Shown here: one piece after another, positions 523 to 19,966 of the stretch | How the letters are laid out: every line of letters starts with the position of its first letter | Numbering within the stretch: the first letter of the stretch is position 1 | Sequence record: SRR20825006_827 | Length of the DNA: 20,000 bases | Strand: one strand, 5' to 3' | Program-made: the position numbers and the translations under genes | Notes under the pieces: model-generated | What the model saw: only the letters and a program-made list of their open reading frames with translations | The model's database searches: none | Told to the model about the DNA's origin: nothing

Positions 523-1399
523 TGGCATCGTGGAGTTGCCGATGCTCATGGACGAGCATGCGCTCGAGCGCATGCAGCAAGCCTTCTCGAGCCGCGTCGA
601 GCACGTCGCCTACAACGGCGACGCTGGCTACAAGGCGATCGATCCCTATCGCCGCTTTGTCGACGACCTGTGCGCGATCTCGCGCGACTTCATCGACGTG
701 GCCGCGCACCCGCTCGTCGCCGAGCTCGTGCGCCAGTACGTCGGCGCGTCGGCCACCATCACCGAGGCCAAGGGGTGGCGCTCACTCCCCACGCACGACG
801 ACTTTCACGGGTGGCACAATGACGCCTGGTATCACCCGGAGCTCGAGGAGGTCCCCAGGCAGTTGAAGCTCGCGGTGTATCTTAGCGACGTGAACTCGGG
901 AGAGTTTCACTATATCCGGGGGACGCAGGGACAAAGGCGCCATGCGCATTTTTCGGACGAGGACGTGCACGAGATGAGCGAGCGACGCATCGAGATGAAG
1001 GCCAGCGCAGGGACCGCCTTCCTGTTCGATGTCTCCGGCATCCATAGGCAGGCGATCCCGATCCTCGAAGATCGAGACGTGGTCTTCTTTGTCTACAATG
1101 ATCCCGAAACACCGCTCCAGGAGGTCGATGTTCGCGCCAGGCGTTACCGACCGCTGATGCTTCGTGCATCGGATATCGGAGGACTCACGACAGGTCAGAG
1201 CGACCTTTTGGGCATCGGCAACCGCGCCCTCGAGCACGACGGCGCCATGGCCAACCCCGAGGACAACGTCCGCGCGCTCATCGATCGCGCTCACCACGCG
1301 CTGATCAAGGGGACGCGGCTGGCAGATCGCATCGAGCGCAGCACGAGGAAAGTGCTCTCCAGAGTTTCGAGCCTTCGACCTCGCGTGCGAACCTGGTAA
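461..1399 (+). CDS. Phytanoyl-CoA dioxygenase (PhyH)-like 2OG-Fe(II) dioxygenase
   Basis: ATG at 461 follows GAGGT (451-455); alternative ATG at 479. Motifs LERDGIVELP, HPLVAELVRQYVG, GWHND (HxD), LAVYLSDV..G.FHYIRGT, AGTAFLFD and GIHR (distal His). Confidence 0.82.
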   Translation: MKPAKEMTVLTNDLLATLERDGIVELPMLMDEHALERMQQAFSSRVEHVAYNGDAGYKAIDPYRRFVDDLCAISRDFIDVAAHPLVAELVRQYVGASATITEAKGWRSLPTHDDFHGWHNDAWYHPELEEVPRQLKLAVYLSDVNSGEFHYIRGTQGQRRHAHFSDEDVHEMSERRIEMKASAGTAFLFDVSGIHRQAIPILEDRDVVFFVYNDPETPLQEVDVRARRYRPLMLRASDIGGLTTGQSDLLGIGNRALEHDGAMANPEDNVRALIDRAHHALIKGTRLADRIERSTRKVLSRVSSLRPRVRTW

Positions 1400-1437
1400 G
1401 ACACCATAATATATTGACTTTTGAACCTTGGCACATC

Positions 1438-1494
1438 TCCTCCCGACGTTCGCGCGAGCGGAGGATCGAACCCCTCGCGCGCATGTTGGGAGGA
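1438..1494. repeat. Long intergenic inverted repeat (hairpin), possible terminator, REP or RNA-stability element
   Basis: TCCTCCCGACGT (1438-1449) pairs with ATGTTGGGAGGA (1483-1494) with two G-U wobbles, and CGCGCGAG (1451-1458) pairs with CTCGCGCG (1474-1481). No U-tract. Confidence 0.6.
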
Positions 1495-1567
1495 CAGCCT
1501 GTGATGGATGTTGTAGGCTATCTGGCGTCATGATGGATTCGTTCTGATTCAGTTTGCGCAGGATGGT

Positions 1568-2926: not shown

Positions 2927-2935
2927 TGTGTCTTT

Positions 2936-4990: not shown

Positions 4991-5108
4991 AGAGGTCCGC
5001 TAAAGAAGGCGCCGCATCATTCAACAGAATAAATCCTGGCGAGTTCTGGTTGGCGCTTGCAGTGAATCGCAACCTCTCTCTCTCCGCACTCGACCTCGCG
5101 AGGACATC

Positions 5109-8100: not shown

Positions 8101-9509
8101 TCTCCATATCAGCGAGTGACCGTGAACGGCTGGATGTGTGGCGACAGCGCGAGGACTTTTTAGACAAAGACGCACGCGACGGGCTCGTCACGCACATGGG
8201 TGGGCGGCGTGTTCTGTCCTACCTGCTCGAATGCCTCGAGCGCGACGAGGGAGTTTTGGACGATATGCTCGAGCATATCGTCGCCCTCGCTCACTTCGGG
8301 AGCACATCGTGGCGCTCGCATCGCTCGTCTCGAACGCGCTCGGAAAACTCCGAGCCCTGGAAGCCCTCGAAGTCATGGCGTCTCGGCAGGTTGAAGGCAT
8401 CGCGAGAGCACGAGGACGCAGACGTTCGCGCAGCGAGCGCGATGGCGCTGTTGGAATCATCAGCGCCGCTCGCGCGAGACGAGGTCGAGGTCTTGCTCGA
8501 AGGCTACCTCGGCGAGGGCTATGAACTCTCGACCGTAGGACGTCGCGCGCTCGCGCAGTTGCTCGAACAATCCTCACCTCATCTTCTCGCGCGGCGTTGG
8601 ACGAGCGAACATATCCCCGGATGGCTCGACCTGCTCGAACATGCTTCGCTTCAGGTCATTTCACATCGCGCGTCGGATTTGCTCGAGATCTGGCGTGGCG
8701 AGGACACCTCCAGCGCAGAACGCGCCCGGCGCCTCCTCGGCAAGCTCGATGGGGATATCGTCTTCGCGCTCGTCTACCCCGCGATAAAACGGGGTGAGCT
8801 CGGCGTCCTCGGGCTGCTCTCGAGGAGCATCACGGAGGATGCGCACGTTCGAGCGATCATCGCCCAGCTCGAAGACCTCGGTGAAAAGCGGCTCGCGAGG
8901 CGTTTGCTCGGGCAACTGCGCGAGGGGCATCTGCTCGATCCTGATGTCCGAGCTTCCCGCGAACGCGATCTCGCCACGCTCCTCATCCCGCCATCCCCGC
9001 TCCCTCCCGAAGCGCGCGTCCTCGAGCAGGGTGAAGATGGGCTACTCGCTGCGCTCTACAGCGAGGATCGCTATGAAGTGCGTGCGGCGCTTCGCCGCGT
9101 GGCCAGGTTCGCAGGCGCGACACAGATCGAGGATCGCGTCGTCACGCTCGCGCTCGAGCACGAGGATCTTTCCCTCAGGAGCGCGGCACATCGCGCGCTG
9201 AGGCAAATCTCATCGAGGCAGGTCTACCTCGATGTCACGCGTCGCTTTCTCCACGATCCACGCAGGGATGTCGTGCGCCAGGCGATCCGCATCCTCGCCC
9301 ACGGAGGCTCCACACAGGAGCTCGATACATTCGTCGAGCTTCTGTTTGGCAAGGACTCCATGCTCGCAGGGCAGGCGCGCGAAGGGTTGCTGATTTTGGG
9401 GGATGTCGCGTTGCCCGAGCTTCGACGTGTGTGCAGCCGCGCGAGACCGGACAGGAGGCCAGTGATCCAAGAGATAATCGAGCAAATTCAAACATCTACG
9501 CTCGCGTGA
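5109..9509 (+). CDS. Large HEAT/PBS-lyase repeat alpha-solenoid protein (1466 aa)
   Basis: RBS GAGGA precedes ATG 5109. HEAT units include DVRKKAIFVL, TARQAIEALGKLHDPGATPALIEAL, NIKLSAAEALATSGDTRAIEPLL and DVVRQAIRILA. Confidence 0.88.
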   Translation: MSPRLPTIEHVLDNLNSSSSDTKLDTLGLLAESDLDAYTPRDRTRLAEALIASAGADLDVLGWDALARALSSLLLWVPEGAMLPERPDDLPTQLEVAWRELELALWPLRELDELTLEALARTNLARIYAPLEVLEALAHLDPLPTPILQRKLEEAVADAPIPGDQLAPMLLRWLDRSSGLARIAMRCLAKPWVCQSDDVRQSVHMLRRCIKSGDDTLARHAIEALSLLEDANSIALAIRDPDQTARGRALLFEHAGHLLPREALEQGFALALEDPWQYGDAMVACLEKMHARGVFLKPEQAPDVLDLFDRHQRFEPEQASRYLYVIRDAVYALLNRLELEDPRWFRLLELVPSLRDEHREALLSKLLSAPDPLYSHVCRVARASGTHCLEKNLLANLEKNADATLRALEACGGAQTADKLAALILEQDTPLWLRAASGRALSLIWHLGKDEYRQMLLSRLEPAALPARIADDLGPRMDQQTLELLMLSPQVGERPERALLDLCRHGGSEALEAIDVLLTRVLQSAVGDHVAGDPHQPWTARSETVLSAEVEEALDAYGARLYSRGSLVIPTLARANSPSQAGRALRAYLLHEQIERAQDARVLRIALDALARTEAMENREQILALTRHEHQDVRKKAIFVLSAYRRDPGLIPRFTSLASMPDIQTARQAIEALGKLHDPGATPALIEALGHRNMNIKLSAAEALATSGDTRAIEPLLGWLERHDHERFRRLLYRALEAILEESLLPVLMTRLASANPRQLRLLSSAIQNLSIYTLRSRDALDDVAMAHLYEAVDLGHCQLVDATRQELLAWVGAGAYHRERTEREDELRGVFDETQLLPGEDNLLDIDAARVERHLTLLLDALPSARGEALAHMLRLLSKVRDFASLPREAHLSACKQLVNLLVVDPLFPRREELLELSTRFSRALPLSSKRALIDTIRAIEAFPGGDGEDRWRILEASGALLEAQDILAIYRDCEVSHSPEIARRRASKLLFPKRSISISASDRERLDVWRQREDFLDKDARDGLVTHMGGRRVLSYLLECLERDEGVLDDMLEHIVALAHFGSTSWRSHRSSRTRSENSEPWKPSKSWRLGRLKASREHEDADVRAASAMALLESSAPLARDEVEVLLEGYLGEGYELSTVGRRALAQLLEQSSPHLLARRWTSEHIPGWLDLLEHASLQVISHRASDLLEIWRGEDTSSAERARRLLGKLDGDIVFALVYPAIKRGELGVLGLLSRSITEDAHVRAIIAQLEDLGEKRLARRLLGQLREGHLLDPDVRASRERDLATLLIPPSPLPPEARVLEQGEDGLLAALYSEDRYEVRAALRRVARFAGATQIEDRVVTLALEHEDLSLRSAAHRALRQISSRQVYLDVTRRFLHDPRRDVVRQAIRILAHGGSTQELDTFVELLFGKDSMLAGQAREGLLILGDVALPELRRVCSRARPDRRPVIQEIIEQIQTSTLA

Positions 9510-9522
9510 TGGTCGCGCGAGC
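9500..9522. terminator. GC-rich hairpin between convergent HEAT and ABC-F genes, possible bidirectional terminator
   Basis: GCTCGCGTGA-TGG-TCGCGCGAGC forms a 10-bp stem with one wobble at the convergent stops. No U-tract. Confidence 0.35.
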
Positions 9523-9552
9523 GCGCCATCCTCACGCGCCATCCTCACGCGC
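9522..9552. repeat. 13-bp tandem repeat (CGCGCCATCCTCA) x2.4
   Basis: Copies at 9522-9534 and 9535-9547 plus a partial copy, overlapping the ABC-F stop codon. Confidence 0.75.
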
Positions 9553-11475
9553 TTTCGCCTCGAGCTCCATCCACCGCTCGTAGAGCTGCTCGGCGTGTTC
9601 TCGCGCCGTCGCCAGCTCTGCGTGAAGTCGCTCGAGCTCCTCTCCGACATCCTCGCGTTGGTAGAGCGTCGGATCTGCCAGTGATTGCTCGATCACATCG
9701 CACGCCTCTTCTGCCTCGAGGATCGCCTCCTCGAGCCCCTCGAGCTCGAGCTTCTCACCGTAACTTAGCGCGCGGCGAGACTCGCGCTCACGTTCGGCGC
9801 GCTCGTGACGCTGGCGTCGCTCCTCGGCGCGTTCGTTCGCGCGCGCCTCACGTTCACGCTGGATCTGGCGATCTTTCCGGCGTCGATAGAAGTCGTAGTT
9901 CCCCTCGTATCGCACCAACCGACGATCCTCGATGGCGATGATGACATTGCACACGCGGTTCAAAAAATAGCGGTCGTGCGACACCACGATGACGCAGCCA
10001 TCGTAGTCTTCGAGCGCCACCTCGAGCGCCTGTAGCGAGAGAATGTCCAGATCGTTTGTGGGCTCGTCGAGCACCAACAGGTTGCCATTTTGAGCGACCA
10101 CGCGCGCGAGCTGTAGGCGCCGTTTTTGCCCACCAGACAACAACCGGACCTTGCGCTTGAGGTCTCTGGAGTCGAACAGAAATTGCTCCAGAAATCGACG
10201 CTTGTGATGGCGCACATCGCCCACCCACACGTAATCACTCGGCCCGAGCGCGTCATAGAGCGTCGCCTCCGGATCGATGGGTGGACCATGCTGTCTCAGG
10301 TAGGCGACATCGGTGCGTTCGCCGATTTCGACCACCCCCGTGTCCGGGCGCATGTAGCCCATAAGCATCTTGAGCAAGGTCGTCTTGCCGCTCCCGTTGG
10401 GGCCGACGAGCCCGATCTTATCGCCCGTGCTGACGTCGATGCCGGTGGGGTTTAGAAGCGCGCGCTTGCCGAGCGTCTTGCTGATCCCACGCGCGGCCAA
10501 AATCAATGGCCCGTGCTCTTTGCCACGCGCGAGCCGCATCCGCATCAGCTCCTCGCCATCCTCTTCCTGACGAAGCGAGCGCTGCCTTTGTTCGAGCTCC
10601 TGGAGATGTTGACCATCCTTTGATCCACGCGACACCGAGTGCAGCTTGAGCTTCTCGATCTCCTCGCCGATCAGCTTCTGCTCGCGCGTGCGCGTCTTTT
10701 GCTCGACCGCCATCCTCGCGAGCTTGCGCTCCATAAAGACGCGGTATTCACCAGGATAATCGTAGAAGGCGTCGCGGCTGACCTCGACGATCCGATCGAC
10801 GACATGCTCCAGAAAGTAGCGATCGTGTGTGATCAGGAGCAGCCCGCGCGTCTTGTTCTTTAACCAGCCCTCGAGCCAGTCGACCGTGTCCGGGTCGAGG
10901 TGGTTCGTCGGCTCGTCGAGCAAGAGCAAGTCGGGCGCTTCGAGCAACACGCGCGCCAGGTCGACGCGCCGCTGCTGACCGCCAGAGAGTCGCTTCGTCG
11001 GGACATCCAGCAAGGCGTCGAGCCCGAGCCGGTCGAGCATCTCCTCGACGCGACGCTCCCAATCCCAACCCCCCAGCTTTTCGATCTGTTGTTGGAGCTC
11101 ATCCTGCTCGTGCAGCAGCCGCTCGAGGTCCTGTGATGCGCCCATCGAGGCGATCTTGTCCGTGGTTGCCTCGTGCGCAGCGATCACTTCCTGGACCCGC
11201 TCCACGGCGCTGGCGACGACCTCTCGAGGCGTCTCCTCGCCAGAAAACCCGACCTCTTGCGCCAGATAAGCGACGCTCGCGGACTGCCGCATCGCGATCT
11301 CGCCCGTCGCGGGCTCGAGCGCGCCGATCAGGATGCGGAACAACGTCGTCTTCCCACAACCGTTCGGGCCGACGATGGCGACCTTCTCGCCATCATCCAT
11401 GCCGAAGCTGACCTCCTTGTAGAGAGGTTCTTCCTCGAATGCGTGTGTCAGATGTCGGATGGAGAGGAGGTTCAT
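9532..11475 (-). CDS. uup: ABC-F family ATPase, Uup-like
   Basis: Likely start MNLLSIRHL at 11475. Two NBDs: GPNGCGKT/LSGGQ/LLLLDEPTNHLD/THDR and GPNGSGKT/LSGGQ/VLDEPTNDLD/SHDR. No TM segments. C-terminal coiled coil LSYGEKLELEGLEEAI resembles the Uup CTD. Confidence 0.9.
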   Translation of the reverse strand: MNLLSIRHLTHAFEEEPLYKEVSFGMDDGEKVAIVGPNGCGKTTLFRILIGALEPATGEIAMRQSASVAYLAQEVGFSGEETPREVVASAVERVQEVIAAHEATTDKIASMGASQDLERLLHEQDELQQQIEKLGGWDWERRVEEMLDRLGLDALLDVPTKRLSGGQQRRVDLARVLLEAPDLLLLDEPTNHLDPDTVDWLEGWLKNKTRGLLLITHDRYFLEHVVDRIVEVSRDAFYDYPGEYRVFMERKLARMAVEQKTRTREQKLIGEEIEKLKLHSVSRGSKDGQHLQELEQRQRSLRQEEDGEELMRMRLARGKEHGPLILAARGISKTLGKRALLNPTGIDVSTGDKIGLVGPNGSGKTTLLKMLMGYMRPDTGVVEIGERTDVAYLRQHGPPIDPEATLYDALGPSDYVWVGDVRHHKRRFLEQFLFDSRDLKRKVRLLSGGQKRRLQLARVVAQNGNLLVLDEPTNDLDILSLQALEVALEDYDGCVIVVSHDRYFLNRVCNVIIAIEDRRLVRYEGNYDFYRRRKDRQIQREREARANERAEERRQRHERAERERESRRALSYGEKLELEGLEEAILEAEEACDVIEQSLADPTLYQREDVGEELERLHAELATAREHAEQLYERWMELEAKAREDGA

Positions 11476-11582
11476 CGGTCCGCCAGCGAAAGCGTCTTTT
11501 CGGCATATTCTGCGGGTAGTCTTAGAGCAGAATGCCGCAAAAAGCGAGCGAGACAGAGAGCTCAGATCTTCAGAGCTCCGCT

Positions 11583-12527
11583 CTAGTTGATCGGCGGCGT
11601 GATCACGACGCGAACCACCTCGCGCTCGGTCGGTCCGAGCTCGATCAAATACCTCCCCTGCTCGACGTTGTGCACCGAGCTGCACGCCTGCGCGAAGGTC
11701 TGCGCGGCGACCTCTCCTGCTTCGGTGACAAAGCGCACTGGCAGATCGCGCGTTGTCGCCAGGCGGTTCGTCTCCACCTCCAAGGTGCCACCGAACATGC
11801 CGTTGCCCTCATCGCGCAAATACACATCGATCGGATAATGCTCGGGCAAATCGAAGTTCGGGATATGCGGAGGGTTCACGCGCGCGGCAGGCCGCACATC
11901 CACCGCCGTCAGCGACCCCTCGAAGAGGCCGCAAATCGACTGGCAATCAGGCTCTGTGCACTCCCCCCACGTCGACTCGCACGCGTCCACGGCGCCGCAG
12001 ATGCCTCCGCAAAAACGAATCAGGTCGTTGGCGACTCCGCAGCTATCCACCCAGCGCAAGGCGTTGGTCTGAATGTCACAAATCGAGTCGACGTCTGGTT
12101 CACATGGCCCGCTCATATCTCCTGATACCGGGGACATGTCCTCCTGGCCGAGATCTTCCTCCGCGTTCATATCCATATCTTCAGGTGTCGAAGATATGTC
12201 CTCCTGACCTTGATCTAAACCTCCCATATCCATCGGGATCGGGTCGTTGGCGCACTCACACATCCCGAAGCGATTCTGGCTGCACGTTCGCGTGGACATC
12301 GAGCCATCAGGGCACTCGCACGTGTTGATATCCCCATCCTGGCAGGTGTCGCAGAGGCACGCCTCGTAACCCGAGCCATCCTGCTTGCAGAGCTGGGCAC
12401 CCATCGCGCCGCCAGCGCACACGCAAGAGACGGAGCGGCCCGGATCGCACGCGAGATCATTTGTGGGGAGCGGGCATCCCCAGGCAAAGAGCGGGAGCAT
12501 CGAGAGCAAGAGCCATCGCTTCAACAC
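11583..12527 (-). CDS. Cys-rich putative lipoprotein with Asp/Met-rich linker, function unknown
   Basis: GTG at 12527 lies 6 nt after AGGAGG and overlaps the protease stop. Signal KRWLLLSMLPLFAWGC, two six-Cys modules, a DM-rich linker (DMGGLDQGQED..EDMDMN..EDMS) and a beta-rich C-terminus. Confidence 0.78.
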   Translation of the reverse strand: MLKRWLLLSMLPLFAWGCPLPTNDLACDPGRSVSCVCAGGAMGAQLCKQDGSGYEACLCDTCQDGDINTCECPDGSMSTRTCSQNRFGMCECANDPIPMDMGGLDQGQEDISSTPEDMDMNAEEDLGQEDMSPVSGDMSGPCEPDVDSICDIQTNALRWVDSCGVANDLIRFCGGICGAVDACESTWGECTEPDCQSICGLFEGSLTAVDVRPAARVNPPHIPNFDLPEHYPIDVYLRDEGNGMFGGTLEVETNRLATTRDLPVRFVTEAGEVAAQTFAQACSSVHNVEQGRYLIELGPTEREVVRVVITPPIN

Positions 12528-13984
12528 GAGCAACCTCCTGGCCCACAGTAAGGATAGGATTGGCCGCAGACGTTCCCCAGAGTGTCGATGTAGTAGCAGT
12601 AGTACCCATCGAACCTGTAGCTCGCCGGGGAGTAGCCGCACGCGCTGCCTGCCGCGTCCACGGCGACGCAGTTGCGCGTCGATGGATCATAGGTCAGGCC
12701 CGTGATCGGGACCTGCTGGCAGACCTGACCCGTCGAGCTCAGGTACTGACACTGGTTCCCATTCACGCGCAACGCCACAGGGTTGCAGCTTGGCGTGGGG
12801 TTCATGCTCGCTGTGCAATCCGGGTCCCTCGGGCATTGAGGATCGCATCGGCCGTTCCCGTGCAACCCGTACGCCTGACACGTATCGACAGGAGGTTGCT
12901 GGCTCTGACAGTCCGAATCGACCGAGCCGCACGCGGCGTCGCAGACGCCGTCAGCCGCGCAAGAACCTCCCTCGGCCGGGCAAGAGCCGCCCGGACAGAG
13001 CAACTCGATGCAATCCTCGTCGAGCTGACATTGCCCATCGCACACATCGTCGCTCTCGCAGGAGACCTCGCGATCGGAGAGCGCGACGATCCCCTCGATC
13101 CAGGAAGCGTGCACATCGAGGCGCTGGTAAAAGCCATAACGATCGCAGGTCTGATCCCCCCACGAGGTCACGCCTACCTGCATCCAGTCTCCATCGACCT
13201 CGATAAACGCAGGTCCTCCAGAGTCGCCATTGCACGCGCCCATGCCGCCAAACGTGTAGCGCAGCGCCTGCGCTGTGAGCGTGTCGAAGCGCACGGTGCT
13301 CGCGCGCCGGATGCCTCCGCCGACAGGGTAGGGCTTCCCGGCGACGACGGTGACATCGGACGCGCCATAGCCGACCAACCGCGAAGGGGCGCCGAGCAAA
13401 TCGCCAGGGTCGCCCAGGTAGAGCTTCGCAGGTTGTACTTCTGTCACAGCCTGGTCGAGCTCCAGGATGGCCAGGTCGTGGCCGTTCTGGAAGGTCCAGG
13501 GTTGCGAGGGGTTAAAGTCGACGTAGTTCGGGTGCTTGTGGACACGCGCGATGCTGCGGTCGATGGTCGGAGAGAAGGGGTTTGCGCCGAGGCGAAACCC
13601 GAGCTCGAAGCTCGCGAGGTTCGAGACGCAGTGCGCGGCGGTGAGCGCCATGTTCGGCGAGATCAAGGTCGCCGTGCAGATCGCATCCGAGCCGTAGGTC
13701 AGCGCGCCGGTCGCGGCGAACTCGCGAGAGCGCTCTCCGCCGATGATATACTCCATCGGGTCGACCTCTTCGGACTGGCCGCCACACTGACACGACTCGA
13801 AGCCGCTGCCATCCTCGAGGCAAACCTGCGCCGAAGATGTGCCATCGGTGCAAGCGCAAGAGACGCTCTCGCCAGGAACACACACCGTGCCCTTGGAGCC
13901 AAAGAGTTGCCCACAACCTGCGGTGAGCGACAGGAGAAGCATCAGGGAAAAGAAAGAAGCTGACAGACCTGGTCGCGTGGACAT
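12521..13984 (-). CDS. S1 (chymotrypsin/trypsin-fold) serine protease lipoprotein with Cys-rich N- and C-terminal modules
   Basis: ATG at 13984 follows GAGG. Lipobox LTAGC, activation site IIGG, catalytic motifs LTAAHC, HDLAIL and ACNGDSGGP, plus GVTSWG. Confidence 0.93.
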   Translation of the reverse strand: MSTRPGLSASFFSLMLLLSLTAGCGQLFGSKGTVCVPGESVSCACTDGTSSAQVCLEDGSGFESCQCGGQSEEVDPMEYIIGGERSREFAATGALTYGSDAICTATLISPNMALTAAHCVSNLASFELGFRLGANPFSPTIDRSIARVHKHPNYVDFNPSQPWTFQNGHDLAILELDQAVTEVQPAKLYLGDPGDLLGAPSRLVGYGASDVTVVAGKPYPVGGGIRRASTVRFDTLTAQALRYTFGGMGACNGDSGGPAFIEVDGDWMQVGVTSWGDQTCDRYGFYQRLDVHASWIEGIVALSDREVSCESDDVCDGQCQLDEDCIELLCPGGSCPAEGGSCAADGVCDAACGSVDSDCQSQQPPVDTCQAYGLHGNGRCDPQCPRDPDCTASMNPTPSCNPVALRVNGNQCQYLSSTGQVCQQVPITGLTYDPSTRNCVAVDAAGSACGYSPASYRFDGYYCYYIDTLGNVCGQSYPYCGPGGCSC

Positions 13985-14086
13985 GACCGCCTCGGGAACA
14001 TATCGGGTTAAAGAAAGCACGCGGTAAATCGCGTCGTGTATAAACCTCGAAAACCCTCCCGAGGCGGCGCTATTCCCGCAGCTCTA

Positions 14087-16249
14087 TCAATGGAACTCGT
14101 TTGTCGTGATCGGCGGCGCCATGATGACCTCCTGCGACCTTTGATCGACGTAGAGCTTGATCTCGATCTTGTGCGCGCCAGGTTTGTTCGGATCGAAGTC
14201 GCGCTCGGCGGTGACGCTCGCGGTCGCCTGATCCCCGTTCCCTGGTCCTGTCTTGTACGTGTAGCGCCAGCTGCTGCTCCCTTCAAAGCCCGGCTGCAAC
14301 TTATCGAGCAAGGGATCGAGGTGCGCGCTGGCGGTCGGCGCGTAGGGGACCGCCGCGCCAGCCTCGGGGACCTTGCTCACGCTGGTCAGCGTGACGTTCT
14401 TTCCGCCAGGGAACACGTAACTGTCCCATCGAATCGGGTATCCTGCGGCCTTGTCAGCTTCCCCCGGGACAGGAGGATGCCATGCTTCGCCATACTTCTG
14501 CTCGCTCGTGAAGTACGATCTGGCGTTGTAGGCGATCGTCCACATCATGCCCTCGCCCTCGCTCAACTTGTTCTCCATGATCTGACGCTGGAGGGCGATC
14601 TCGAACGCTTTCGGCTCGGGCGTCGGGTCAGCATAGCCCGTGAAGACAAGGCCCGAGCTCCCGAGCTTGCCGCTCACGAGGACGTTATCCGGGAAGAGCG
14701 GCGCGAGGGCGGCTTCCATCTCGTTGCGCGCCGTCATCGCGCTCTTGAACTTGGAGCCATCGACGATGCCGCCGAACTCGCCGCTGATCAATTCGGTCTT
14801 GTCTATCGAGAGCGCGAGCCCAGGAGCCACGCCGAACATCGCCGCGTTGACCTCGTCGATCCCCAACTCCCCATGCGCGATGGCGATGCGCTTGTTCCCG
14901 AAGCAAATCATGACCGGCGCGAAGCCCTGGATGCTGAATTGCTCGTAGGTCATGTCCTTGTTCTCGCCAGCAGTGATAGTCTGCGAATTCACCGGCGCGC
15001 CGACCTTCGTGACAAAATCCTGGAAGATATCCCTGATGCGTTTGACGTCCTCGTCACTCGCGTAGGTGGTCATCACAATAGGCTTCACCTGCTCGAAGGG
15101 GTTCTCATCTGCGTCCGGGTAGGAGGCGATGAGGATGTTTCCGCTATGTCCGGCGAAGATGTCGCGCCTGGGGTCAAACGAGAGCCCGAACTGCTGCTCG
15201 ATCTCGTCGAGCGTGCTCTCGATCTCGTGCTCACCGATCGGCGTGAGCAGCGAGACAAACAGCTCCCACATGTTGACGCCGTCGAGGCGAAACGCCATCG
15301 CCCCCACGACATCACGCGTGACCAGCTCGCCCAGCGGAATCACTGGCGTGGCGCGCGTCAGATCCTTGGCGAGCGCGCGACCATCGGCGTCGAGCCCGAC
15401 CCACCCGCGCCCGACCCAGCGCTCCTTCTCGAGCGAGAGGCTCCCGCCAACGCCCTGGACCGTGAGCAGCAGTCGCGCGAACTTGGTCGCTTCGATCGGG
15501 GTGTCTCCCATCGAGCGGTAGAGGTCGCGCAGCATCTCGCGATGCAGCGGCCCGCGCGCTTGCAGGAAGAAGCCCATCGTTTCGTTTGTGCCCATGAGTT
15601 CTTGCTCGAAGTTCTGGAAGGCTTCGGTGTCAGCGAGCGAGCGGCTCTTTAGCGTCCCTTGCGTCGCGCACATCTCGCGGGCGCCCTCTTCGTCTTCCGA
15701 GACGAGGACGAGCGGGCCGCAATCGACCATTTGCAGGTCATGACTGTATACGGTGAAGCCATCCCCCTTCTCCTTGACCTCGAGCTGGAGCTGCCGCGTT
15801 ATCGTGAGCTCGAACTGATCGCGGTCTGTGACAGGGAACGCGAGGACCGGATCGGTGAAGTCCGAGCGGCCATAGGTGGACAGGATGTAGAAGGGAGCAT
15901 CGGTCTTGACGCCGATCTTCTTCCAGCTCTCGACCGAGAAGATGTCGATCCCGGAGACTTCCTTGAAGCGGCGGAGATCAGGCATCGCCTCTTCCATGAC
16001 CGCGCCTTCGGGCGTCAGCGTCGAGACAGTCGCGATGACCTCCTCGACGCTGCGAAAAGCGACCACCAGGTCAGCGCGTTCGCTCAGCGTCCTCGCGCCT
16101 TCGCTGATCGGGCCACGCTTTGGCTTCTCGATCAGGTTCTCCTGGTTGTTTTCCGCCTTGCGATCCTTGCAGCTCGTGGAAAGCGTCAGCAGGAGGGCAC
16201 AGCCCAGGACAGAGAGGACACGGAAGGAAGGGGTCTTTACGCGCAGCAT
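14087..16249 (-). CDS. 720-aa lipoprotein with a C-terminal type IV pilin-like domain
   Basis: RBS AAGGAG upstream; lipobox LLLTLSTSC. The C-terminal segment KLSEGEGMMWTIAYNARSYFTSE has pilin alpha1-C spacing. The CDS is solid; the domain call is inference. Confidence 0.75.
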   Translation of the reverse strand: MLRVKTPSFRVLSVLGCALLLTLSTSCKDRKAENNQENLIEKPKRGPISEGARTLSERADLVVAFRSVEEVIATVSTLTPEGAVMEEAMPDLRRFKEVSGIDIFSVESWKKIGVKTDAPFYILSTYGRSDFTDPVLAFPVTDRDQFELTITRQLQLEVKEKGDGFTVYSHDLQMVDCGPLVLVSEDEEGAREMCATQGTLKSRSLADTEAFQNFEQELMGTNETMGFFLQARGPLHREMLRDLYRSMGDTPIEATKFARLLLTVQGVGGSLSLEKERWVGRGWVGLDADGRALAKDLTRATPVIPLGELVTRDVVGAMAFRLDGVNMWELFVSLLTPIGEHEIESTLDEIEQQFGLSFDPRRDIFAGHSGNILIASYPDADENPFEQVKPIVMTTYASDEDVKRIRDIFQDFVTKVGAPVNSQTITAGENKDMTYEQFSIQGFAPVMICFGNKRIAIAHGELGIDEVNAAMFGVAPGLALSIDKTELISGEFGGIVDGSKFKSAMTARNEMEAALAPLFPDNVLVSGKLGSSGLVFTGYADPTPEPKAFEIALQRQIMENKLSEGEGMMWTIAYNARSYFTSEQKYGEAWHPPVPGEADKAAGYPIRWDSYVFPGGKNVTLTSVSKVPEAGAAVPYAPTASAHLDPLLDKLQPGFEGSSSWRYTYKTGPGNGDQATASVTAERDFDPNKPGAHKIEIKLYVDQRSQEVIMAPPITTNEFH

Positions 16250-16272: not shown

Positions 16273-16332
16273 GAGGGTGTTGGAGATAGTCGGACCGAGT
16301 CTGGCGACGTGGAGAACATCTTCAACGCCCTC
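16273..16332 (+). mobile_element. 60-bp palindromic MITE/REP-like element, copy 1
   Basis: 15-bp terminal inverted repeats GAGGGTGTTGGAGAT...ATCTTCAACGCCCTC, flanked by TAT on both sides (16270-16272, 16333-16335). 53/60 identical to the reverse complement of 19907-19966. Confidence 0.75.
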
Positions 16333-16449: not shown

Positions 16450-16983
16450 TCATGAGGTCAACTCCGAGCATTTGCCGATGGAGTCCTCGAGCCAGGATAT
16501 GCGCGCCGAGAGATAGGCCTCGCTCCATGCGGCGCTCATCTGCTCGAAGTCTCCGAGATCCTCGACCTCGTCATCCTCCTGGAGCGCCTTGAGGCGCGCC
16601 TTACAGGCGTCGAGCTCGCGCTCGAGCATCCCCTGCGTCAGCGCCGTGTTGGCGTCAGCCGCCATATCCAGGCGCAAGACGACCTCATCTCGCATGGAGA
16701 AGTCTTGCGCGGGCTGGCGCAGCCAGCGCTGGAGGTGATTGCGGCCAGCGTCCGTCAGAGAATAAATCTTCTTCTCCCGACCTGCCTCGCTCTCGGTCGT
16801 CTCGACCTCCGCCCAGCCCTCTTCGAGGAGGCGGTGAAGCATGGGGTAGATCTGACCATAAGATTCATTCCAGAAGTGATAGCGCTCCTTCTCGAGTTTC
16901 TTCTTGAGGTCGTAGCCGCTCGCGTCTTGTTTGCTCAACATGCCCAGGATGGCGTAGAGCGTCCGTGAAGTTTTTCGTGCCAT
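16450..16983 (-). CDS. PadR-family transcriptional regulator (AphA-like, with C-terminal helical domain)
   Basis: Motifs YAILGMLSKQDASGYDLKK, FWNESYGQIYPML.RL and REKKIYSLTDAGR.HL..WL..P...RDE. RBS GGAG upstream. Confidence 0.94.
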   Translation of the reverse strand: MARKTSRTLYAILGMLSKQDASGYDLKKKLEKERYHFWNESYGQIYPMLHRLLEEGWAEVETTESEAGREKKIYSLTDAGRNHLQRWLRQPAQDFSMRDEVVLRLDMAADANTALTQGMLERELDACKARLKALQEDDEVEDLGDFEQMSAAWSEAYLSARISWLEDSIGKCSELTS

Positions 16984-17448
16984 TGCGTACTCCGTTCGTT
17001 GTGCGGCACCTTTTGATATACTGCTTCTGTGCTCGAGCAGCCTTTTCGAGGTGCCAAAGTGTTTTCCGATCTATCAACGGGATAGATTAGCTGTACTCCG
17101 AGAGCATTGTGGTTGCAAGAGACCCATCTCGAAATCGAGGTGTTCTCTCCACCAAACGTCTCTTCGTGGTTAAAGTCTTGGTAAAACGTATCAAAACAGA
17201 ATTTGTATAACTTGTCTCGTAAAAAATCGATGCGGGACAAATGGGTGGGTTTAAAAAACCTCGGGTTTGTGGTGGCACGGAAATACTCCTACATTGCTTT
17301 TGCAGATGGCCTATTCCATTCACGAACAACACCTTTCTCGTCACTTCCTGACGAGCGCCGAAAAAATCTGAAGATAAATGGCTATGTGTCGTCTATCCTT
17401 GGCAGAAGGCCAAGGGCATCGACCGCTGGCCATAAATCGGGTCCATCG

Positions 17449-17486
17449 GTATGTTTTCGATATATCGACACAAGGCTCGATAAAGT
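17449..17486 (+). promoter_or_regulatory. Candidate operator and promoter of the RRE-precursor gene
   Basis: Perfect 12-bp palindrome TCGATATATCGA (17457-17468) overlaps a weak -35 TCGATA; -10-like TAAAGT at 17481-17486 (18-bp spacer). Lies in the AT-rich region divergent from padR. Confidence 0.35.
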
Positions 17487-17512
17487 TTACTGTTTTTTCA
17501 AAGGAACGAATC

Positions 17513-18226
17513 ATGAACCCGATCGCGCGCACCCGAGGGGTGATCTTCAAAACGAACGAATCCGACGTCATCGCCTCACTCGAAGGAAAAAATGTTACGT
17601 TGACACACGCGTTGCACCAAATCTTGACATTATGTGACGGAAATCGGGACATCGATGCGATCGCACACATGCTCGATATGCCGCGTCAGGACATCTTCGC
17701 CGCGCTCGACCAACTCGCTGACCTCGGCTTGCTCCAAACGCGCACCGCACCACCCGCGAACGTGCTCGCGCAGACATTGCCCGCGGGCATGAGCCGCCGC
17801 GAGGCGCTCTCGCGCATCGCACTCGGCGTCGCCGGTGGTTTGACCGCCTTCTCGCTCGGGAGCCGCGTCGCCTTCGCGCAAGATGCCGACAAATCGACCA
17901 AGACCACCAAGACCACCAAGACCGATACGACCGAGACCAACAAGCCGATCAAGGGCACCACAGAAGCGGATAAAAAACTCGAGGAGGAAATCGCTGCCCT
18001 CGATAAACGCATCCAGGAGCGCGATCTCAAGCGCAAGAAGGCGATCCAGTGTCGCAAAAAAGGAGGCACGCGCGCCCAGGAAGAGGAGATAAAGCGGAGC
18101 GCCTGTCAGAACCCCGGACAGCTCCAAAAAGAGATCGCCGCCGATCGACAACTCCTCAAAAAGAAAAAGCGCCTCCAGGAACAGCGCAGAAAGAGCGCCA
18201 GCGAACACATGTACAAGACCAGGTGA
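17513..18226 (+). CDS. PqqD/RRE-domain protein with internal twin-arginine motif and charged C-terminal region, putative RiPP precursor or modified secreted protein
   Basis: AAGGA precedes ATG 17513. Residues 1-75 show a beta-strand + winged-helix PqqD pattern (ILTLCDGNRDIDAIA..L...DIFAALDQLADLGLL). Residues 93-122 read MSRREALSRIALGVAGGLTAFSLGSRVAFA. The tail is rich in T, K, E and Q. Confidence 0.75.
   Translation: MNPIARTRGVIFKTNESDVIASLEGKNVTLTHALHQILTLCDGNRDIDAIAHMLDMPRQDIFAALDQLADLGLLQTRTAPPANVLAQTLPAGMSRREALSRIALGVAGGLTAFSLGSRVAFAQDADKSTKTTKTTKTDTTETNKPIKGTTEADKKLEEEIAALDKRIQERDLKRKKAIQCRKKGGTRAQEEEIKRSACQNPGQLQKEIAADRQLLKKKKRLQEQRRKSASEHMYKTR
17897..17923 (+). repeat. In-frame 9-bp tandem repeat (ACCAAGACC) x3 encoding TKT-TKT-TKT
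   Basis: Read directly from the sequence, just after the predicted AFA/Q cleavage site. Confidence 0.85.
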
Positions 18227-18288
18227 GGCGCGACCTCTCGATCCTTTGCGACGCATAAGACGCGGCGAGGAGGTGGCGATTCGATACG

Positions 18289-19743
18289 CTACATCCTCGC
18301 CGCGTTTGCTTTGGCGCGCAGGTGCGAGAGCATCATCGCCGCGACATCATCGCTCCCCGCGTCGAACGGATGCGCGAAGTAAGAGGGGAAGTTCACCTCC
18401 AACACAAACGCGCGCCCACTCTCATGCTCGAGCACATCCACGCCCCCCATCTCCAACCCGAGCACCGCGCACGCATCACGCGCGACCTCGATGACTTCTG
18501 CGGGAGCCTCTTGCTCGAAATACTCGGGCTTCTCTTCATCGACATGGGTTCGAAAGTCATCCTGGCGCGAGGGGTTGATGTAGGCGCAAGTCTGCTCTCC
18601 GACCACGATCACCCGCCAGTGCGTCGCCGGTTCGATGCTGCTCATCAGGGTCGCGTAGGCTCCTTGCGTCGCGTAAACCTGATCGACCACAGAGAACAGA
18701 GTCGACCAATCGGTGAGCCTCATGACGCCCACACCCAGTGATCTCCCAGGGACCTTGAGGACGACCGGAAAGCCCCCGAGGTGCTCGACAAAGGCTCGAA
18801 GCTGCGCGCGCTCGTCGGTCAGCGCGAAGATCGCGCGCGGCGTCGGGATGCCACACCGCGCGAGCAGGAGCGCCTGGTTGTCATGGATCAGATGCGCTCC
18901 CAGCGGATGACTGTAGAAGGTCGCCACGCGCGGATGCGCGAGCATCTGCTCGACGACGATCGCGCGATGAGAGGTCGCCACCCGATACAACATCGCGCCA
19001 TCCTCCAGAGGCGGCGTGCCCACGAGGTCGAAGTCCTCGGCGTCGATCTCGATCATCTCGACACCTTGCTCCAGACAGGCGTGCTCGAGTTGTTCCTCCA
19101 GGCGACTGCGCCGTCCATCACAGACCACATAGAGGCGCTCGCGCAGCTCGGGCGCTGGAGAGAGCTCTTCTGTCAGCGCCGACAAGGCATCGAGCGGCGC
19201 GTAGATAAAGCCCGCCAACGTGATCTTTTTGCCTGCGCTGACCTCGTTGCCTCGGTGCCAGGCGGTCAGATCGAGCTCGAGGTCGCTCGCCACGTTGTAC
19301 CAGAGGAGCGCCTCACCGAGCGCGGGTGTGTGCTCCAGGTTGCCTCCCCTGGCGCGCTCGAAGCATGTCTCACCGCCGCTCTCTGGGGGCTCCAGCGTCA
19401 GCAACACCGTCGCCACGAGGTGCTCGCCGTCCAACACATAGTCGTCGAAGTGTGCCGGGTGTCCCTGTCCCTCACGATAGATGCGCAGGCGCAGATGCGT
19501 CAGCGAGGCGTCAGGTAACAGCGCCGCCTCACACATGCGCGAGGCCACAGCCTCGAGCACCCCGTCGATCCTGACAGGTAGCTCGAGGCTCGTCCCGGCA
19601 GGTCCTCTCTCGGTCGAGAGCTGATGACTCGCCAGGAGCGCGTCATCCTCGATGAGCGCGAGGATGCGTTCGATCTCGTCGTGCTCGACGAGCTCTTCGA
19701 GCAAAAAGACAGAGGGTTGCGTGCTGAGTCGCGTTCGTTTCAT
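18289..19743 (-). CDS. Fusion of a prolyl-4-hydroxylase-like 2OG-Fe(II) oxygenase and a RimK-like ATP-grasp ligase
   Basis: Likely start ATG 19743; alternative TTG 19773. N-domain: LRIYREGQGHPAHFD (HxD), VATVLLTL...GGETCF, GEALLWYN, AWHRGNEV.AGKK. C-domain: GIPTP, GGFPVVLK..GRSLGVGVM, WRVIVVG, DFRTH, LGLEMGGVDVL, FVLEVN. Confidence 0.88.
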   Translation of the reverse strand: MKRTRLSTQPSVFLLEELVEHDEIERILALIEDDALLASHQLSTERGPAGTSLELPVRIDGVLEAVASRMCEAALLPDASLTHLRLRIYREGQGHPAHFDDYVLDGEHLVATVLLTLEPPESGGETCFERARGGNLEHTPALGEALLWYNVASDLELDLTAWHRGNEVSAGKKITLAGFIYAPLDALSALTEELSPAPELRERLYVVCDGRRSRLEEQLEHACLEQGVEMIEIDAEDFDLVGTPPLEDGAMLYRVATSHRAIVVEQMLAHPRVATFYSHPLGAHLIHDNQALLLARCGIPTPRAIFALTDERAQLRAFVEHLGGFPVVLKVPGRSLGVGVMRLTDWSTLFSVVDQVYATQGAYATLMSSIEPATHWRVIVVGEQTCAYINPSRQDDFRTHVDEEKPEYFEQEAPAEVIEVARDACAVLGLEMGGVDVLEHESGRAFVLEVNFPSYFAHPFDAGSDDVAAMMLSHLRAKANAARM

Positions 19744-19906
19744 CTGGCTCTCGTGTGTGGGCTTCTTGCTCAAAGCGTTCTGGAAGCGTCGAAGGTATTC
19801 ACGATCTCGAGGAACACGGCAAGCGTCGGGTTTCCGTTTTCAGGCGACCCGGTCAGCAGACCCTCTGCGCTCCCTCTTGCCGACTTGAATGGTGACGTTT
19901 GCCTGG

Positions 19907-19966
19907 GAGGGTGTCGAACATATTCTCCACGTCGCCAGACTCGGTCCGAAGATCTTCAACACCCTC
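19907..19966 (-). mobile_element. 60-bp palindromic MITE/REP-like element, copy 2 (inverted relative to copy 1)
   Basis: GAGGGTGTCGAACAT...ATCTTCAACACCCTC. The central 27 bp are the exact reverse complement of TCGGACCGAGTCTGGCGACGTGGAGAA in copy 1. Confidence 0.75.

Follow-up and report, generated by a model that had tools for sequence, protein, structure and literature searches.

The window, a 20,000-nt stretch of DNA (SRR20825006_827), carries at 16450..19743 three genes, encoding a PadR-family regulator, a small protein and an enzyme that fuses a 2OG-Fe(II) oxygenase domain to an ATP-grasp ligase (Table 1). The ORF list confirmed this arrangement and bore out the gene order and relative orientations given in a preliminary description of the locus, as well as the 62 bp said to separate the small gene and the enzyme gene tail to tail: the two genes converge, and their stop codons are separated by 18227-18288. 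The PadR gene is divergent from the small gene across a 529-bp spacer (16984-17512), and a 60-nt inverted repeat flanks all three genes in the window. Read from its first TTG, the enzyme ORF spans 18289-19773 and encodes 494 aa; its homologues begin at the ATG at 19743, the position at which the preliminary description also ends, and those of the small protein share an MNP start.

Table 1. Genes and protein features of the locus, in positions of the window.
Feature	Position	Strand	Basis or detail
PadR-family regulator	16450..16983	-	Pfam PadR 9.9e-19
Partner (putative precursor) protein, 237 aa (P0001)	17513..18226	+	ORF and translation
RRE-like (PqqD-like) domain, residues 1-76	17513..17740	+	AF2 model, Foldseek, structure alignment
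Linker, residues 77-92, invariant R77, P80, P81	17741..17788	+	22/22 sequences of A4; low pLDDT
Internal twin-arginine (Tat-like) signal, residues 93-122	17789..17878	+	MSRREAL, Gly/Ala-rich h-region, R118, AFA before Q123
Variable Thr/Lys-rich linker with KTT repeat, residues 123-150	17879..17962	+	Poorly conserved
Helical tail, residues 151-237	17963..18223	+	Five E-x-x-x-K motifs, Cys180, Cys198, NPGQ at 200-203
2OG-oxygenase/ATP-grasp fusion enzyme, 484 aa	18289..19743	-	ORF; P0002 100% identical, 484 aa
C-terminal ATP-grasp ligase, RimK/LysX/graspetide clade, residues 206-494	18289..19158	-	Pfam RimK 3.2e-11
N-terminal P4H-like 2OG-Fe(II) oxygenase domain, residues 11-205 (494-aa numbering)	19159..19743	-	H108-x-D110, H173, K183

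The small-protein and enzyme genes form a conserved pair

The preliminary description had made its reading depend on the co-occurrence of the small gene and the enzyme gene in other genomes, and the two do travel together. The partner gene was present in 19/22 loci whose ATP-grasp is at least 49% identical to that of the window enzyme, and in the three loci that lacked it (L002, L013, L018) the contig ends 187-273 nt past the enzyme gene; it was found in none of 25 loci whose ATP-grasp is at most 42% identical. Across about 401 genomes of the phylum of the pair-carrying MAG G001, 24 carried both genes, 2 the partner only, 9 the enzyme only and 366 neither (Fisher p 5e-29). Among 15 loci of this phylum that were fetched on a partner match, the two genes were adjacent in 13, convergent in some and co-directional in others. 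The pair also occurs in gammaproteobacteria, and its carriers include lineages as distant as Thalassolituus and Myxococcota-type MAGs. Their association is far beyond chance, and the two genes are conserved as a pair.

Other neighbouring genes vary from locus to locus. A scan of the neighbouring genes in L001, L004, L012 and 13/15 phylum loci brought up no conserved third gene alongside the pair, and no PadR gene. The PadR gene is a local neighbour that lies outside the conserved unit, and its place as a component of the system, as first proposed, was not supported.

Domains of the small protein

Residues 1-76 of the small protein were modelled by AF2 at pLDDT 84-92, and DSSP assigned to the model a three-stranded sheet (E10-14, E19-23, E26-30) followed by three helices (H32-40, H47-54, H58-70), the order of a winged helix. 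The best Foldseek matches of this segment were all RRE-bearing RiPP proteins, and it aligned with the lasso B1 RRE 6jx3_B over 75 residues (Z 9.6, rmsd 2.4) and with PqqD 5sxy at Z 7.6. Profile searches gave fainter signals. The window protein had weak matches to HTH_47 (2.6e-5), PqqD (0.038) and TIGR03859 (13.9 bits) and no PF05402 match in Pfam at E≤0.1; PqqD (PF05402) scored 24.6 bits on the homologue L083, where the Pfam cut-off is 23.4, and about 20 bits on other homologues. The closest ESM Atlas clusters were PqqD (score 0.87), which serves as a lead only. The PqqD/RRE-like N-terminus on which the preliminary description had also staked its reading was thus confirmed in the predicted structure, in which residues 1-76 adopt an RRE-like fold.

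Conservation of the partner is strongest in RRE helix 3 (ALDxLxD) and in the R..PP linker that follows, ahead of the tail. Known RREs (PqqD, lasso B1, and the LynD/TruD and MccB N-domains) are found on enzymes or as stand-alone chaperones, with the leader bound in trans, which the accessible portion of one account gives as the normal mode of peptide binding for these domains (PMC12710340). Unlike these, the RRE here is the N-terminal domain of the very protein presumed to be modified, ahead of an export signal, and a limited literature search found no precedent for an RRE that shares a polypeptide with its presumed substrate.

The segment from residue 93 to 122 resembles a twin-arginine signal. 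The pattern [LVM]-S-R-R-x-[LAVF]-L-[RK] followed by a hydrophobic stretch recurs in 148/152 representatives (mean hydropathy 1.49), with S at -1 in 85/148 and L at +4 in 93/148, and the arginine pair, residues 95-96 in the window protein, has a median position of 96 in the 148. The window protein combines an SRRxFL-like motif with a mildly hydrophobic h-region and an AxA c-region (MSRREAL...GSRVAFA, then Q), and these features, together with a basic c-region residue, are common to Tat signals of the kind served by proofreading chaperones. What sets it apart is its position: a classical Tat signal is expected at the N-terminus, whereas this one begins at residue 93, with a folded domain of 92 residues ahead of it. 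Profile matches to the Tat signals of MelC1 and AioB were weak and not significant (E 0.15-0.7), no NCBIfam Tat-signal model matched the small protein at E≤0.1, and the segment could instead be a plain membrane anchor.

Between this segment and the tail lies the KTT linker, encoded in part by a 9-nt tandem repeat at 17890-17916 that is one unit shorter in P0024, P0025 and L009. In the AF2 model, the tail consists of helices at 151-183, 191-197 and 201-236, mostly at pLDDT 82-90, and its five motifs pair E151 with K155, E169 with K173, E190 with K194, E223 with K227 and E231 with K235. In A3 the pairs E190/K194 and E231/K235 do not vary, and the latter is also invariant in 22/22 sequences of A4. 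When 15 enzyme-linked tails, which are mutually related, were pooled, Glu was followed by Lys at i+4 149 times against 43.1 expected (z 17.5), whereas Arg at that position was depleted (8 versus 25.3 expected, z -3.8). D→K occurred 21 times versus 25.6 and K→E 60 times versus 43.1, and K→D was not enriched (20 versus 25.8); the pattern is specific for Glu and for Lys. The same E→K enrichment reached z≥3 in 113/134 representative tails, a sample biased towards such tails because they were retrieved by a profile containing the tail. Both residues of a motif tend to be kept or lost together: across aligned motif columns, both were present in 77 cases, Glu only in 4, Lys only in 4 and neither in 22. 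The ExxxK feature picked out in the preliminary description is in this way a family-wide signature, with a modest enrichment in the window's own tail (five motifs, z 2.1). The Thr/Lys/Glu-rich composition ascribed to the tail also held, but the Thr-rich stretch turned out to be the poorly conserved, variable linker and not a conserved core.

Glu as carboxylate donor and Lys as acceptor at fixed spacing is the pattern of a graspetide-type precursor, the bond itself being only predicted. Against a lactam reading, charged single helices of the ordinary kind also gain stability from E(i)-K(i+4) pairs. Other representatives bear Cys-rich or Thr-rich tails behind the same RRE and twin-arginine module, and the C-terminus of the small protein has no acidic EE-type tail.

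Two catalytic halves in one enzyme

The fusion enzyme was modelled by AF2 at a mean pLDDT of 87.5 and, judged by sequence, both of its halves have intact catalytic residues. In the oxygenase half, the iron triad H108/D110/H173 is invariant in 19/19 sequences of A5, and position 183, ten residues beyond the distal His, is Lys in 17/19 and Arg in 2/19. This +10 spacing of the basic 2OG-binding residue is a signature of prolyl 4-hydroxylases (P4H). The family profile matched solved prolyl 4-hydroxylases in the PDB at 9e-16, and Foldseek retrieved algal P4H structures (3gze and 2jig) at about 1e-12 to 1e-13. The window enzyme had no Pfam oxygenase match at E≤0.1; PF13640 was recorded for 7/22 enzyme homologues, scoring above its 27-bit cut-off in L001 (29.9) and L082 (29.7) and just below it at 26.2 and 21.4.

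Fusion of the two halves was found in the window and, by full-length ORF matches, in at least 27 of the genomes sampled from the phylum. The oxygenase domain is missing from Thalassolituus-type loci, where the ATP-grasp stands alone, and from L012, and it is catalytically dead in 2/13 enzyme homologues. The P4H-like oxygenase fused to an ATP-grasp therefore stands as a description of the window, but not as a universal part of the system, and the domain is dispensable in some lineages.

The Pfam RimK ATP-grasp match covers residues 303-461 of the second half, which has the ATP-grasp fold and the ATP/Mg residues of the RimK family (conserved K340, R408, D446, E459 and N461). Curated models placed it in neither TIGR00768 nor a graspetide synthetase family: the scores were 62.9 bits versus a cut-off of 143.4 for rimK_fam (TIGR00768; E 3.1e-17), 51.8 versus 275.6 for LysX (E 6.2e-14), 36.4 versus 331 for PRK10446, and 34.5 versus 350, 16.8 versus 425 and 12.7 versus 475 for the graspetide models TIGR04187, TIGR04185 and TIGR04184. 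Searched against the PDB, the ATP-grasp profile matched RimK at 5e-25 (91 bits) and PsnB at 3e-11, and Foldseek returned ArgX, RimK and PsnB at 1e-12 to 1e-14 (TMt 0.74-0.77 to RimK), with ArgX-LysW and RimK-RpsF complexes as the best matches. On these sequence comparisons RimK, and not the graspetide synthetases, is the nearer relative of the ligase, and glutamylation therefore stays a rival to cross-linking.

Known systems and candidate functions

The preliminary description recognised no such architecture among characterised graspetide clusters, a view overtaken by corallotide, which by analogy is the closest known system. In the accessible part of the report on it (PMC13097080), corallotide is graspetide group 15, encoded by CorA/CorB/CorC/CorD of Corallococcus exercitus; the ATP-grasp CorB and the PF13640 oxygenase CorC form a complex, Lys(i)-Asp(i+4) isopeptides are made at five KxxxD motifs of CorA, a 22-kDa precursor with a folded N-terminal docking domain, and the Lys concerned is then 5-hydroxylated. 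As far as that part goes, the likeness extends to an ATP-grasp that would act with a PF13640-type 2OG-Fe(II) oxygenase (separate in CorB/CorC, one chain here), to a protein-sized substrate, presumed here, whose folded N-terminal domain would dock the enzymes, to repeated i,i+4 carboxylate/Lys core motifs and to occurrence in Myxococcota-type bacteria. The two homologues with a dead oxygenase domain would fit a structural or activating role like that of CorC on CorB.

The differences, again within the accessible part of that report, are as clear. Corallotide joins Lys(i) to Asp(i+4) where the motif here is Glu(i)-Lys(i+4), a comparison made by description and not with the CorB/CorC sequences; its N-terminal domain is all-helical, in place of an RRE fold plus an internal twin-arginine signal; and the CorA core is reported to be a coil with collagen-like CD, whereas the tails here are predicted to be helical. 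The ligase here falls outside TIGR04187, and no PF00144 neighbour (the CorD-type beta-lactamase) was seen in L001, L004, L012 or the phylum loci scanned. Neither the KxxxD motif, nor CorD, nor restriction to Corallococcus applies to this family, gammaproteobacteria also carrying the pair, and five of its motif strings are absent from the examined part of the paper's RODEO table. RimK, the S6 L-glutamate ligase, and LysX/ArgX-LysW are the nearest ATP-grasp kin by sequence and fold, and each has a partner protein of its own, whose acidic tail it modifies; the partner here is unlike S6 and LysW, and those systems have no counterpart of the oxygenase domain, the RRE, the signal segment or the ExxxK arrays.

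From the folds, catalytic residues, gene pairing and motif statistics observed here, we infer a substrate role for the partner and tentatively favour, with confidence just short of even, a two-gene protein-modification module in which the tail of the 237-aa protein is lactam-crosslinked, hydroxylated and exported by Tat. The leader would comprise the cytoplasmic RRE domain and the internal twin-arginine signal, and the helical array of Glu-x-x-x-Lys motifs would be the core. Lacking a signal sequence and dependent on ATP and 2OG, the enzyme must work in the cytoplasm, where it would modify the tail ahead of export. Its ATP-grasp half would activate Glu side chains and join each to the Lys at i+4 as an isopeptide (lactam) staple, and its P4H-like half would hydroxylate, possibly at the cross-linked Lys by analogy with CorC. 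The modified, folded tail would leave via Tat, probably cut by signal peptidase after AFA(122). The RRE may bind either the enzyme or its own signal, the latter in the manner of the Tat proofreading chaperones NapD, TorD and DmsD (compared here with the accessible parts of PMC3712460 and PMC3316669); a cis-acting RRE chaperone is speculation by analogy, and what the proposed system has in common with theirs is cargo completed in the cytoplasm and exported folded.

Were the ligase of RimK type, it would attach a free amino acid, glutamate or another, to carboxylates on the partner, at tail Glu residues or the C-terminus, and form no intramolecular cross-link. The best sequence and Foldseek matches point that way, as does the action of RimK and LysX/ArgX on acidic partner tails, the tail here being Glu-rich. 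We nonetheless consider this unlikely: RimK and LysX scores are all below curated cut-offs, the partner C-terminus lacks the EE-type ending, and a fused or associated PF13640 oxygenase resembles corallotide and not RimK systems (PMC13097080, accessible part). Glutamylation, moreover, would neither need Lys at Glu+4 nor bar Arg there, nor explain why the two residues are retained or lost jointly. That PadR is an integral member of a three-gene, PadR-regulated RiPP cluster is very improbable, since for all its divergent placement beside the partner gene and the inverted repeat enclosing all three genes, it adjoins the pair in no other scanned locus (L001, L004, L012, 13/15 phylum loci).

The twin-arginine segment might be an ordinary Sec/YidC signal anchor of a bitopic protein whose cytoplasmic parts the enzyme modifies, for example by prolyl hydroxylation of the R-x-A-P-P linker. 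The internal position of the segment, the invariance of P80 and P81 and the prolyl 4-hydroxylase likeness of the oxygenase half agree with this, but the linker is equally invariant where the ATP-grasp has no oxygenase domain (Thalassolituus, L012), the motif, modest hydropathy, AxA and basic residue of the c-region are in keeping with a Tat signal, and modification of the linker alone would leave the ATP-grasp idle, which together make it quite unlikely. We also judge it unlikely that the partner serves as an adaptor or regulator anchored in the membrane, its RRE tethering the enzyme, controlling it or presenting a small peptide, while the tail plays a separate periplasmic role. The usual trans binding by RREs, the conservation of helix 3 and the R..PP linker above that of the tail, the Cys-rich or Thr-rich tails behind the same module and a 529-bp spacer that could hold a candidate small gene would all suit such a role. 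No third gene travels with the pair in the loci scanned, however, and an untouched exported tail would leave unexplained why the partner is so tightly paired with a protein ligase of the cytoplasm; the ExxxK signature, for its part, is specific and is kept from Thalassolituus to Myxococcota-type MAGs.

Pairing and distribution of the two genes

Three genes of the window, encoding a PadR regulator, a small protein that we call the partner (P0001) and an enzyme in which a 2OG-oxygenase is fused to an ATP-grasp ligase, were correctly located and described in the preliminary description, as judged from their open reading frames and the Pfam match of the regulator. A spacer of 529 bp separates the divergent PadR and partner genes. 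A TTG at 19773 opens the mechanical reading frame of the enzyme; in the identical database protein P0002, as in every close homologue, the start is an ATG ten codons later. Enzyme residue numbers below follow the 494-aa form from the TTG.

Features of the window
Feature	Coordinates	Strand	Remark
PhyH-like dioxygenase	245-1399		
Ser/Thr kinase	1568-2926		
LRR protein	2936-4990		
HEAT-repeat protein, 1466 aa	5109-9509		
ABC-F ATPase	9532-11685	-	
Trypsin-like protease	12521-14020	-	
Lipoprotein-like protein, 720 aa	14087-16249	-	without family
60-nt palindrome, left copy	16273-16332		imperfect
PadR regulator	16450-16983	-	Pfam PadR 9.9e-19
Partner, 237 aa	17513-18226	+	ORF
Tandem 9-nt repeat	17890-17916		KTT units in partner linker
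N-P-G-Q/M turn	18110-18121		partner residues 200-203
44-nt inverted repeat	18235-18330		imperfect (73%)
Enzyme gene	18289-19743	-	convergent with partner, 62-bp gap
60-nt palindrome, right copy	19907-19966		inverted, 88% complementary to left copy

We fetched 47 loci carrying relatives of the enzyme, 22 with at least 49% identity in the ATP-grasp and 25 with at most 42%. The partner gene lay directly beside the enzyme gene in 19 of the 22 closer loci; the other three contigs stop 187-273 nt beyond the enzyme gene, and one of them (L013) has a marginal fragment. By tblastn and HMM, no partner was found near the distant ATP-grasp relatives (0/25). A sample of 401 genomes was drawn from the phylum of G001, a MAG with a 65%-identical enzyme, and yielded a partner match in 26 and a strong oxygenase-domain match (E<1e-30) in 33. 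Both occurred in 24 genomes, the partner only in 2, the enzyme only in 9 and neither in 366 (Fisher p 5e-29), in a tally that merges partner and oxygenase-domain searches listing the same genome handles, full identity of the samples not being certain. These results bear out the co-occurrence of the two genes that the preliminary description had proposed as a check. Around partner matches, a full-length fusion enzyme (E 1e-101 to 1e-141) adjoined the partner in 13 of 15 loci fetched, seven pairs being convergent and the others co-directional, with partners of about 360-450 aa counted from the RRE start. One of the two exceptions has a contig ending 31 nt past the partner, and the other genome carries its enzyme on another contig. 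One locus (L086:1-5857, G104:C56) holds three paralogous partner genes intermingled with two copies of the enzyme gene; its partners combine a shortened ExxxK region with an added C-terminal beta-rich domain that gives a weak Laminin_G_3 match.

The remaining neighbours of the pair are unrelated between loci, and none of the genes of window 1-16249 adjoins the pair elsewhere. PadR, which had been counted as part of the system, was absent from the neighbours scanned in other loci and is thus incidental. A partner profile search recovered 980 representative clusters (at 50% identity) at E<=0.001, and database sources name the partner and enzyme proteins ‘hypothetical’.

The gammaproteobacterium Thalassolituus also has the pair, with a stand-alone ATP-grasp of about 290 aa lacking the oxygenase domain, and was itself the single match in a sample of 401 from Pseudomonadota. 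A 212-aa ORF upstream of this ATP-grasp was considered as a split oxygenase and rejected (hhalign probability 0.15%, no Pfam match), in a comparison of a single sequence with a profile that is insensitive. In Thalassolituus-type loci (L004:3820-6864; also L003, L005, L014, L019 and L020), a run of genes ends with the stand-alone ATP-grasp. Before it come genes for an MscS-like channel and a Zn_peptidase_2 metallopeptidase, and an unassigned ORF (about 210 aa) that abuts the ATP-grasp start codon. The metallopeptidase could be a maturation protease.

Repeats accompany the three genes in the window. Two inverted copies of an imperfect 60-nt palindrome flank PadR, partner and enzyme, the left one lying a short way upstream of where the 720-aa lipoprotein gene begins; they share an exact 25-nt core (0 expected by chance), and the palindrome forms a predicted hairpin (-24.7 kcal/mol, z -2.9). 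The copies may represent a REP-like repeat, a common regulatory site or cassette ends. The 44-nt inverted repeat lies across the gap between the convergent stop codons and may be a two-way terminator; a terminator scan did not call it, and scanning the window for tRNAs, Rfam families and promoters brought up nothing relevant.

Recognition domain, signal segment and tail of the partner

Partner residues 1-76 form a confidently predicted N-terminal domain of three strands followed by three helices (AF2 pLDDT 84-92), whose top Foldseek matches are all bearers of a RiPP recognition element (RRE): LynD/TruD, TbiB1, PbtF, PqqD, TigE, McbB, MibB and MccB. VIA-align gave Z 9.6 to a lasso-peptide B1 RRE (rmsd 2.4 A, 75/85 residues), 8.5-8.7 to MccB, LynD and TbiB1, and 7.6 to PqqD. 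Sequence matches are weak (HTH_47 2.6e-5, PqqD 0.038, ApyI 0.02), and one partner homologue scores above the Pfam PqqD cut-off (24.6 vs 23.4 bits). The model and both structural comparisons thus confirm the RRE fold that the preliminary description had suggested verifying at this N-terminus.

The domain is followed by an invariant linker, R77-x-x-P80-P81, and from residue 93 by M-S-R-R-E-A-L, a hydrophobic Gly/Ala-rich stretch, R118 and A-F-A before Q123. Judged by sequence, this segment matches the twin-arginine signal pattern, apart from beginning at residue 93. In 148 of 152 sequences examined, a hydrophobic segment comes after an RR pair, which has a median position of 96 and the logo [LVM]-S-R-R-x-[LAVF]-L-[RK]. 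Translation from an internal start at M93, which would yield a plain N-terminal Tat signal, was rejected: Thalassolituus-type partners do not keep the Met, and the domain before it shows conservation at the protein level. The linker that follows is Thr/Lys-rich and variable. Its tandem KTT repeat is one unit shorter in the near-identical proteins P0024 and P0025 and in locus L009, so the Thr-rich stretch varies in length; we consider this stretch, which had been counted in the tail, to be incidental.

Residues 151-236 are predicted by AF2 to form a helical hairpin with two Cys and five E-x-x-x-K motifs. Across 15 enzyme-linked tails (3082 residues, kin to one another), we counted 149 cases of Glu with Lys at i+4, where shuffling gave an expectation of 43.1 (z 17.5); these cases account for 43% of all Glu. 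Arg at the same position was rarer than expected (8 vs 25.3, z -3.8), Asp-to-Lys was not above expectation (21 vs 25.6), the reverse order, Lys-to-Glu, was mildly enriched (60 vs 43.1), and i+3 spacing barely so (55 vs 43.6). Per protein, the z for ExxxK was 4-8.5 in long tails, 4.2-5.0 in Thalassolituus and 2.1 in the window partner. It reached at least 3 in 113 of 134 representative tails, which were retrieved with a profile that included the tail (1194 motifs observed, 260 expected). In aligned motif columns, picked for having the pair, both residues were present in 77 cases, a single one in 4 and 4, and neither in 22; E231 and K235 are invariant in 22/22 sequences. Salt bridges between Glu(i) and Lys(i+4) also stabilise ordinary charged helices. 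Because Arg and Asp are excluded, the pattern would argue for a chemical rather than purely electrostatic requirement.

The turn between the tail helices, N-P-G-Q/M, is flanked by the Cys pair. It is present in short partners with an oxygenase-bearing enzyme (window, L001) and in P0026-P0029 and L011, where the enzyme type is only partly visible; it is missing from L012 and deleted in Thalassolituus, both with oxygenase-less ligases. Since the long G001-phylum partners examined lack it despite a fused oxygenase, it is at most a subgroup feature.

The enzyme and its relation to corallotide

An AlphaFold2 model of the enzyme, built on a 13-sequence alignment, is confident and two-part (mean pLDDT 87.5). 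A complete ATP-grasp makes up the C-terminal half (about residues 206-494). Foldseek ranked ArgX/LysX, RimK and the graspetide ligase PsnB highest for it (all 1e-12 to 1e-14); the family profile matched RimK at 5e-25, PsnB at 3e-11 and LysX at 1e-10. NCBIfam scores were far under the curated cut-offs (rimK_fam 62.9 bits, LysX 51.8, graspetide maturase TIGR04187 34.5). These matches and scores place the ligase on a branch of its own within the clade of ATP-grasps that modify proteins and peptides, somewhat closer to RimK. ATP-grasp residues K340, R408, D446, E459 and N461 are retained in homologues.

In its N-terminal half the enzyme has a double-stranded beta-helix oxygenase, which resembles prolyl 4-hydroxylases most closely (Foldseek 3gze, 2jig; profile 9e-16). 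Pfam reported PF13640 on enzyme homologues and not on the window enzyme at E<=0.1. The iron triad H108, D110 and H173 is invariant in 19/19 full-length homologues, with K or R at position 183 throughout. In two more distant homologues, P0016 and P0021, H108, D110, H173 and K183 are replaced while the oxygenase domain and the ATP-grasp residues remain; the N-domain may have a non-catalytic role, by analogy with activation of CorB by CorC.

The nearest published system, compared by description, is corallotide (PMC13097080). There, the ATP-grasp CorB (TIGR04187) is complexed with the PF13640 oxygenase CorC; CorB links Lys(i) to Asp(i+4) through isopeptide bonds at five KxxxD motifs in CorA, a 22-kDa precursor, CorC afterwards 5-hydroxylates the cross-linked Lys, and the folded CorA N-terminal domain binds the enzymes (PMC13097080). 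Both systems share an ATP-grasp with a PF13640-type oxygenase, i,i+4 motifs and a folded N-terminal domain, but the motif here is ExxxK, differing in order and residue, the ligase belongs to another ATP-grasp clade, the two enzymes are fused rather than separate chains, an RRE on the presumed substrate and a Tat-like signal are present here and not in corallotide, and the distributions differ. Six PF13640-like matches from the phylum sample (L124-L129), fetched as CorC-like stand-alone oxygenases, had no ATP-grasp neighbour by HMM. Because the ligase falls below the NCBIfam cut-offs for graspetide synthetase families and RimK, the system would seem, from sequence, to work like graspetides or corallotide without membership in any named family. 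Literature searches, which left an amidoligase survey outside their scope, returned no description of an RRE joined to a Tat signal, nor of such an oxygenase-ATP-grasp fusion.

A proposed route of modification and export

The data give folds, residues, pairing and motif statistics; each further step is inferred, and the most economical reading is modification of the partner tail. Lacking an export signal and requiring ATP and 2OG, the enzyme must act in the cytoplasm. The sole conserved companion of the enzyme combines a peptide-binding RRE fold, a Tat-type signal and a repeated carboxylate/amine motif such as ATP-grasp ligases connect; the tail of this companion would be the substrate. The ATP-grasp would form side-chain amides between Glu(i) and Lys(i+4), the oxygenase, if present and active, would hydroxylate the cross-linked product, and Tat would export the tail in its folded, cross-linked state, to be freed by signal peptidase. 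The partner RRE may dock the enzyme, as described for the N-terminal domain of CorA, or may hold its own signal until modification is done, in the manner of Tat proofreading chaperones. A complex prediction for enzyme and partner, run without controls or supplied alignments, scored 0.00 and speaks neither way. The earlier interpretation, an RRE-Tat precursor hydroxylated and cross-linked before export under a PadR regulator, is partly supported: its pairing and RRE fold stand, PadR and the Thr-rich stretch do not, and its chemistry is putative.

Alpha-helices are classically stabilised by synthetic Glu(i)-Lys(i+4) lactams. It is conceivable, though we think it rather doubtful, that the partners are widespread, unnamed exported ‘stapled-helix’ proteins whose leader, a cis RRE with a twin-arginine signal, brings an ExxxK tail to the cytoplasmic ATP-grasp, which would lock every helical turn by a Glu-Lys lactam, with hydroxylation by a fused P4H-like domain in many lineages, and that they leave through Tat because they are covalently folded. 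If true, three firsts would follow: a natural equivalent of synthetic i,i+4 lactam helix stapling, an RRE that the substrate itself bears and a RiPP-like pathway tied to Tat. The proposed chemistry, if correct, would also extend ATP-grasp side-chain cross-linking from short peptides to entire exported proteins of 200-580 residues, add a new mode of enzyme recruitment, by a recognition domain on the substrate, and define a type of Tat client by covalent cross-links instead of cofactors; enzymatic Glu-Lys helix stapling would interest protein engineers. Should the enzyme turn out to be a glutamylase, there would still be novelty in a RimK-like system dedicated to an exported protein. The ExxxK/RRE/RR signature is simple to mine and marks a large, readily testable family, its roughly 980 representative clusters all unnamed in the sources examined.

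The RRE + SRR + hydrophobic leader also precedes other tails, and may serve further modification systems; if the stapled-helix reading is true, these tails would mark more undiscovered chemistries. Nearly without Glu/Lys, they are either Cys-rich (6-14 Cys; P0111, P0147, P0151, P0152, P0170 and P0171) or Thr-rich (20-24 Thr; P0091 and P0158).
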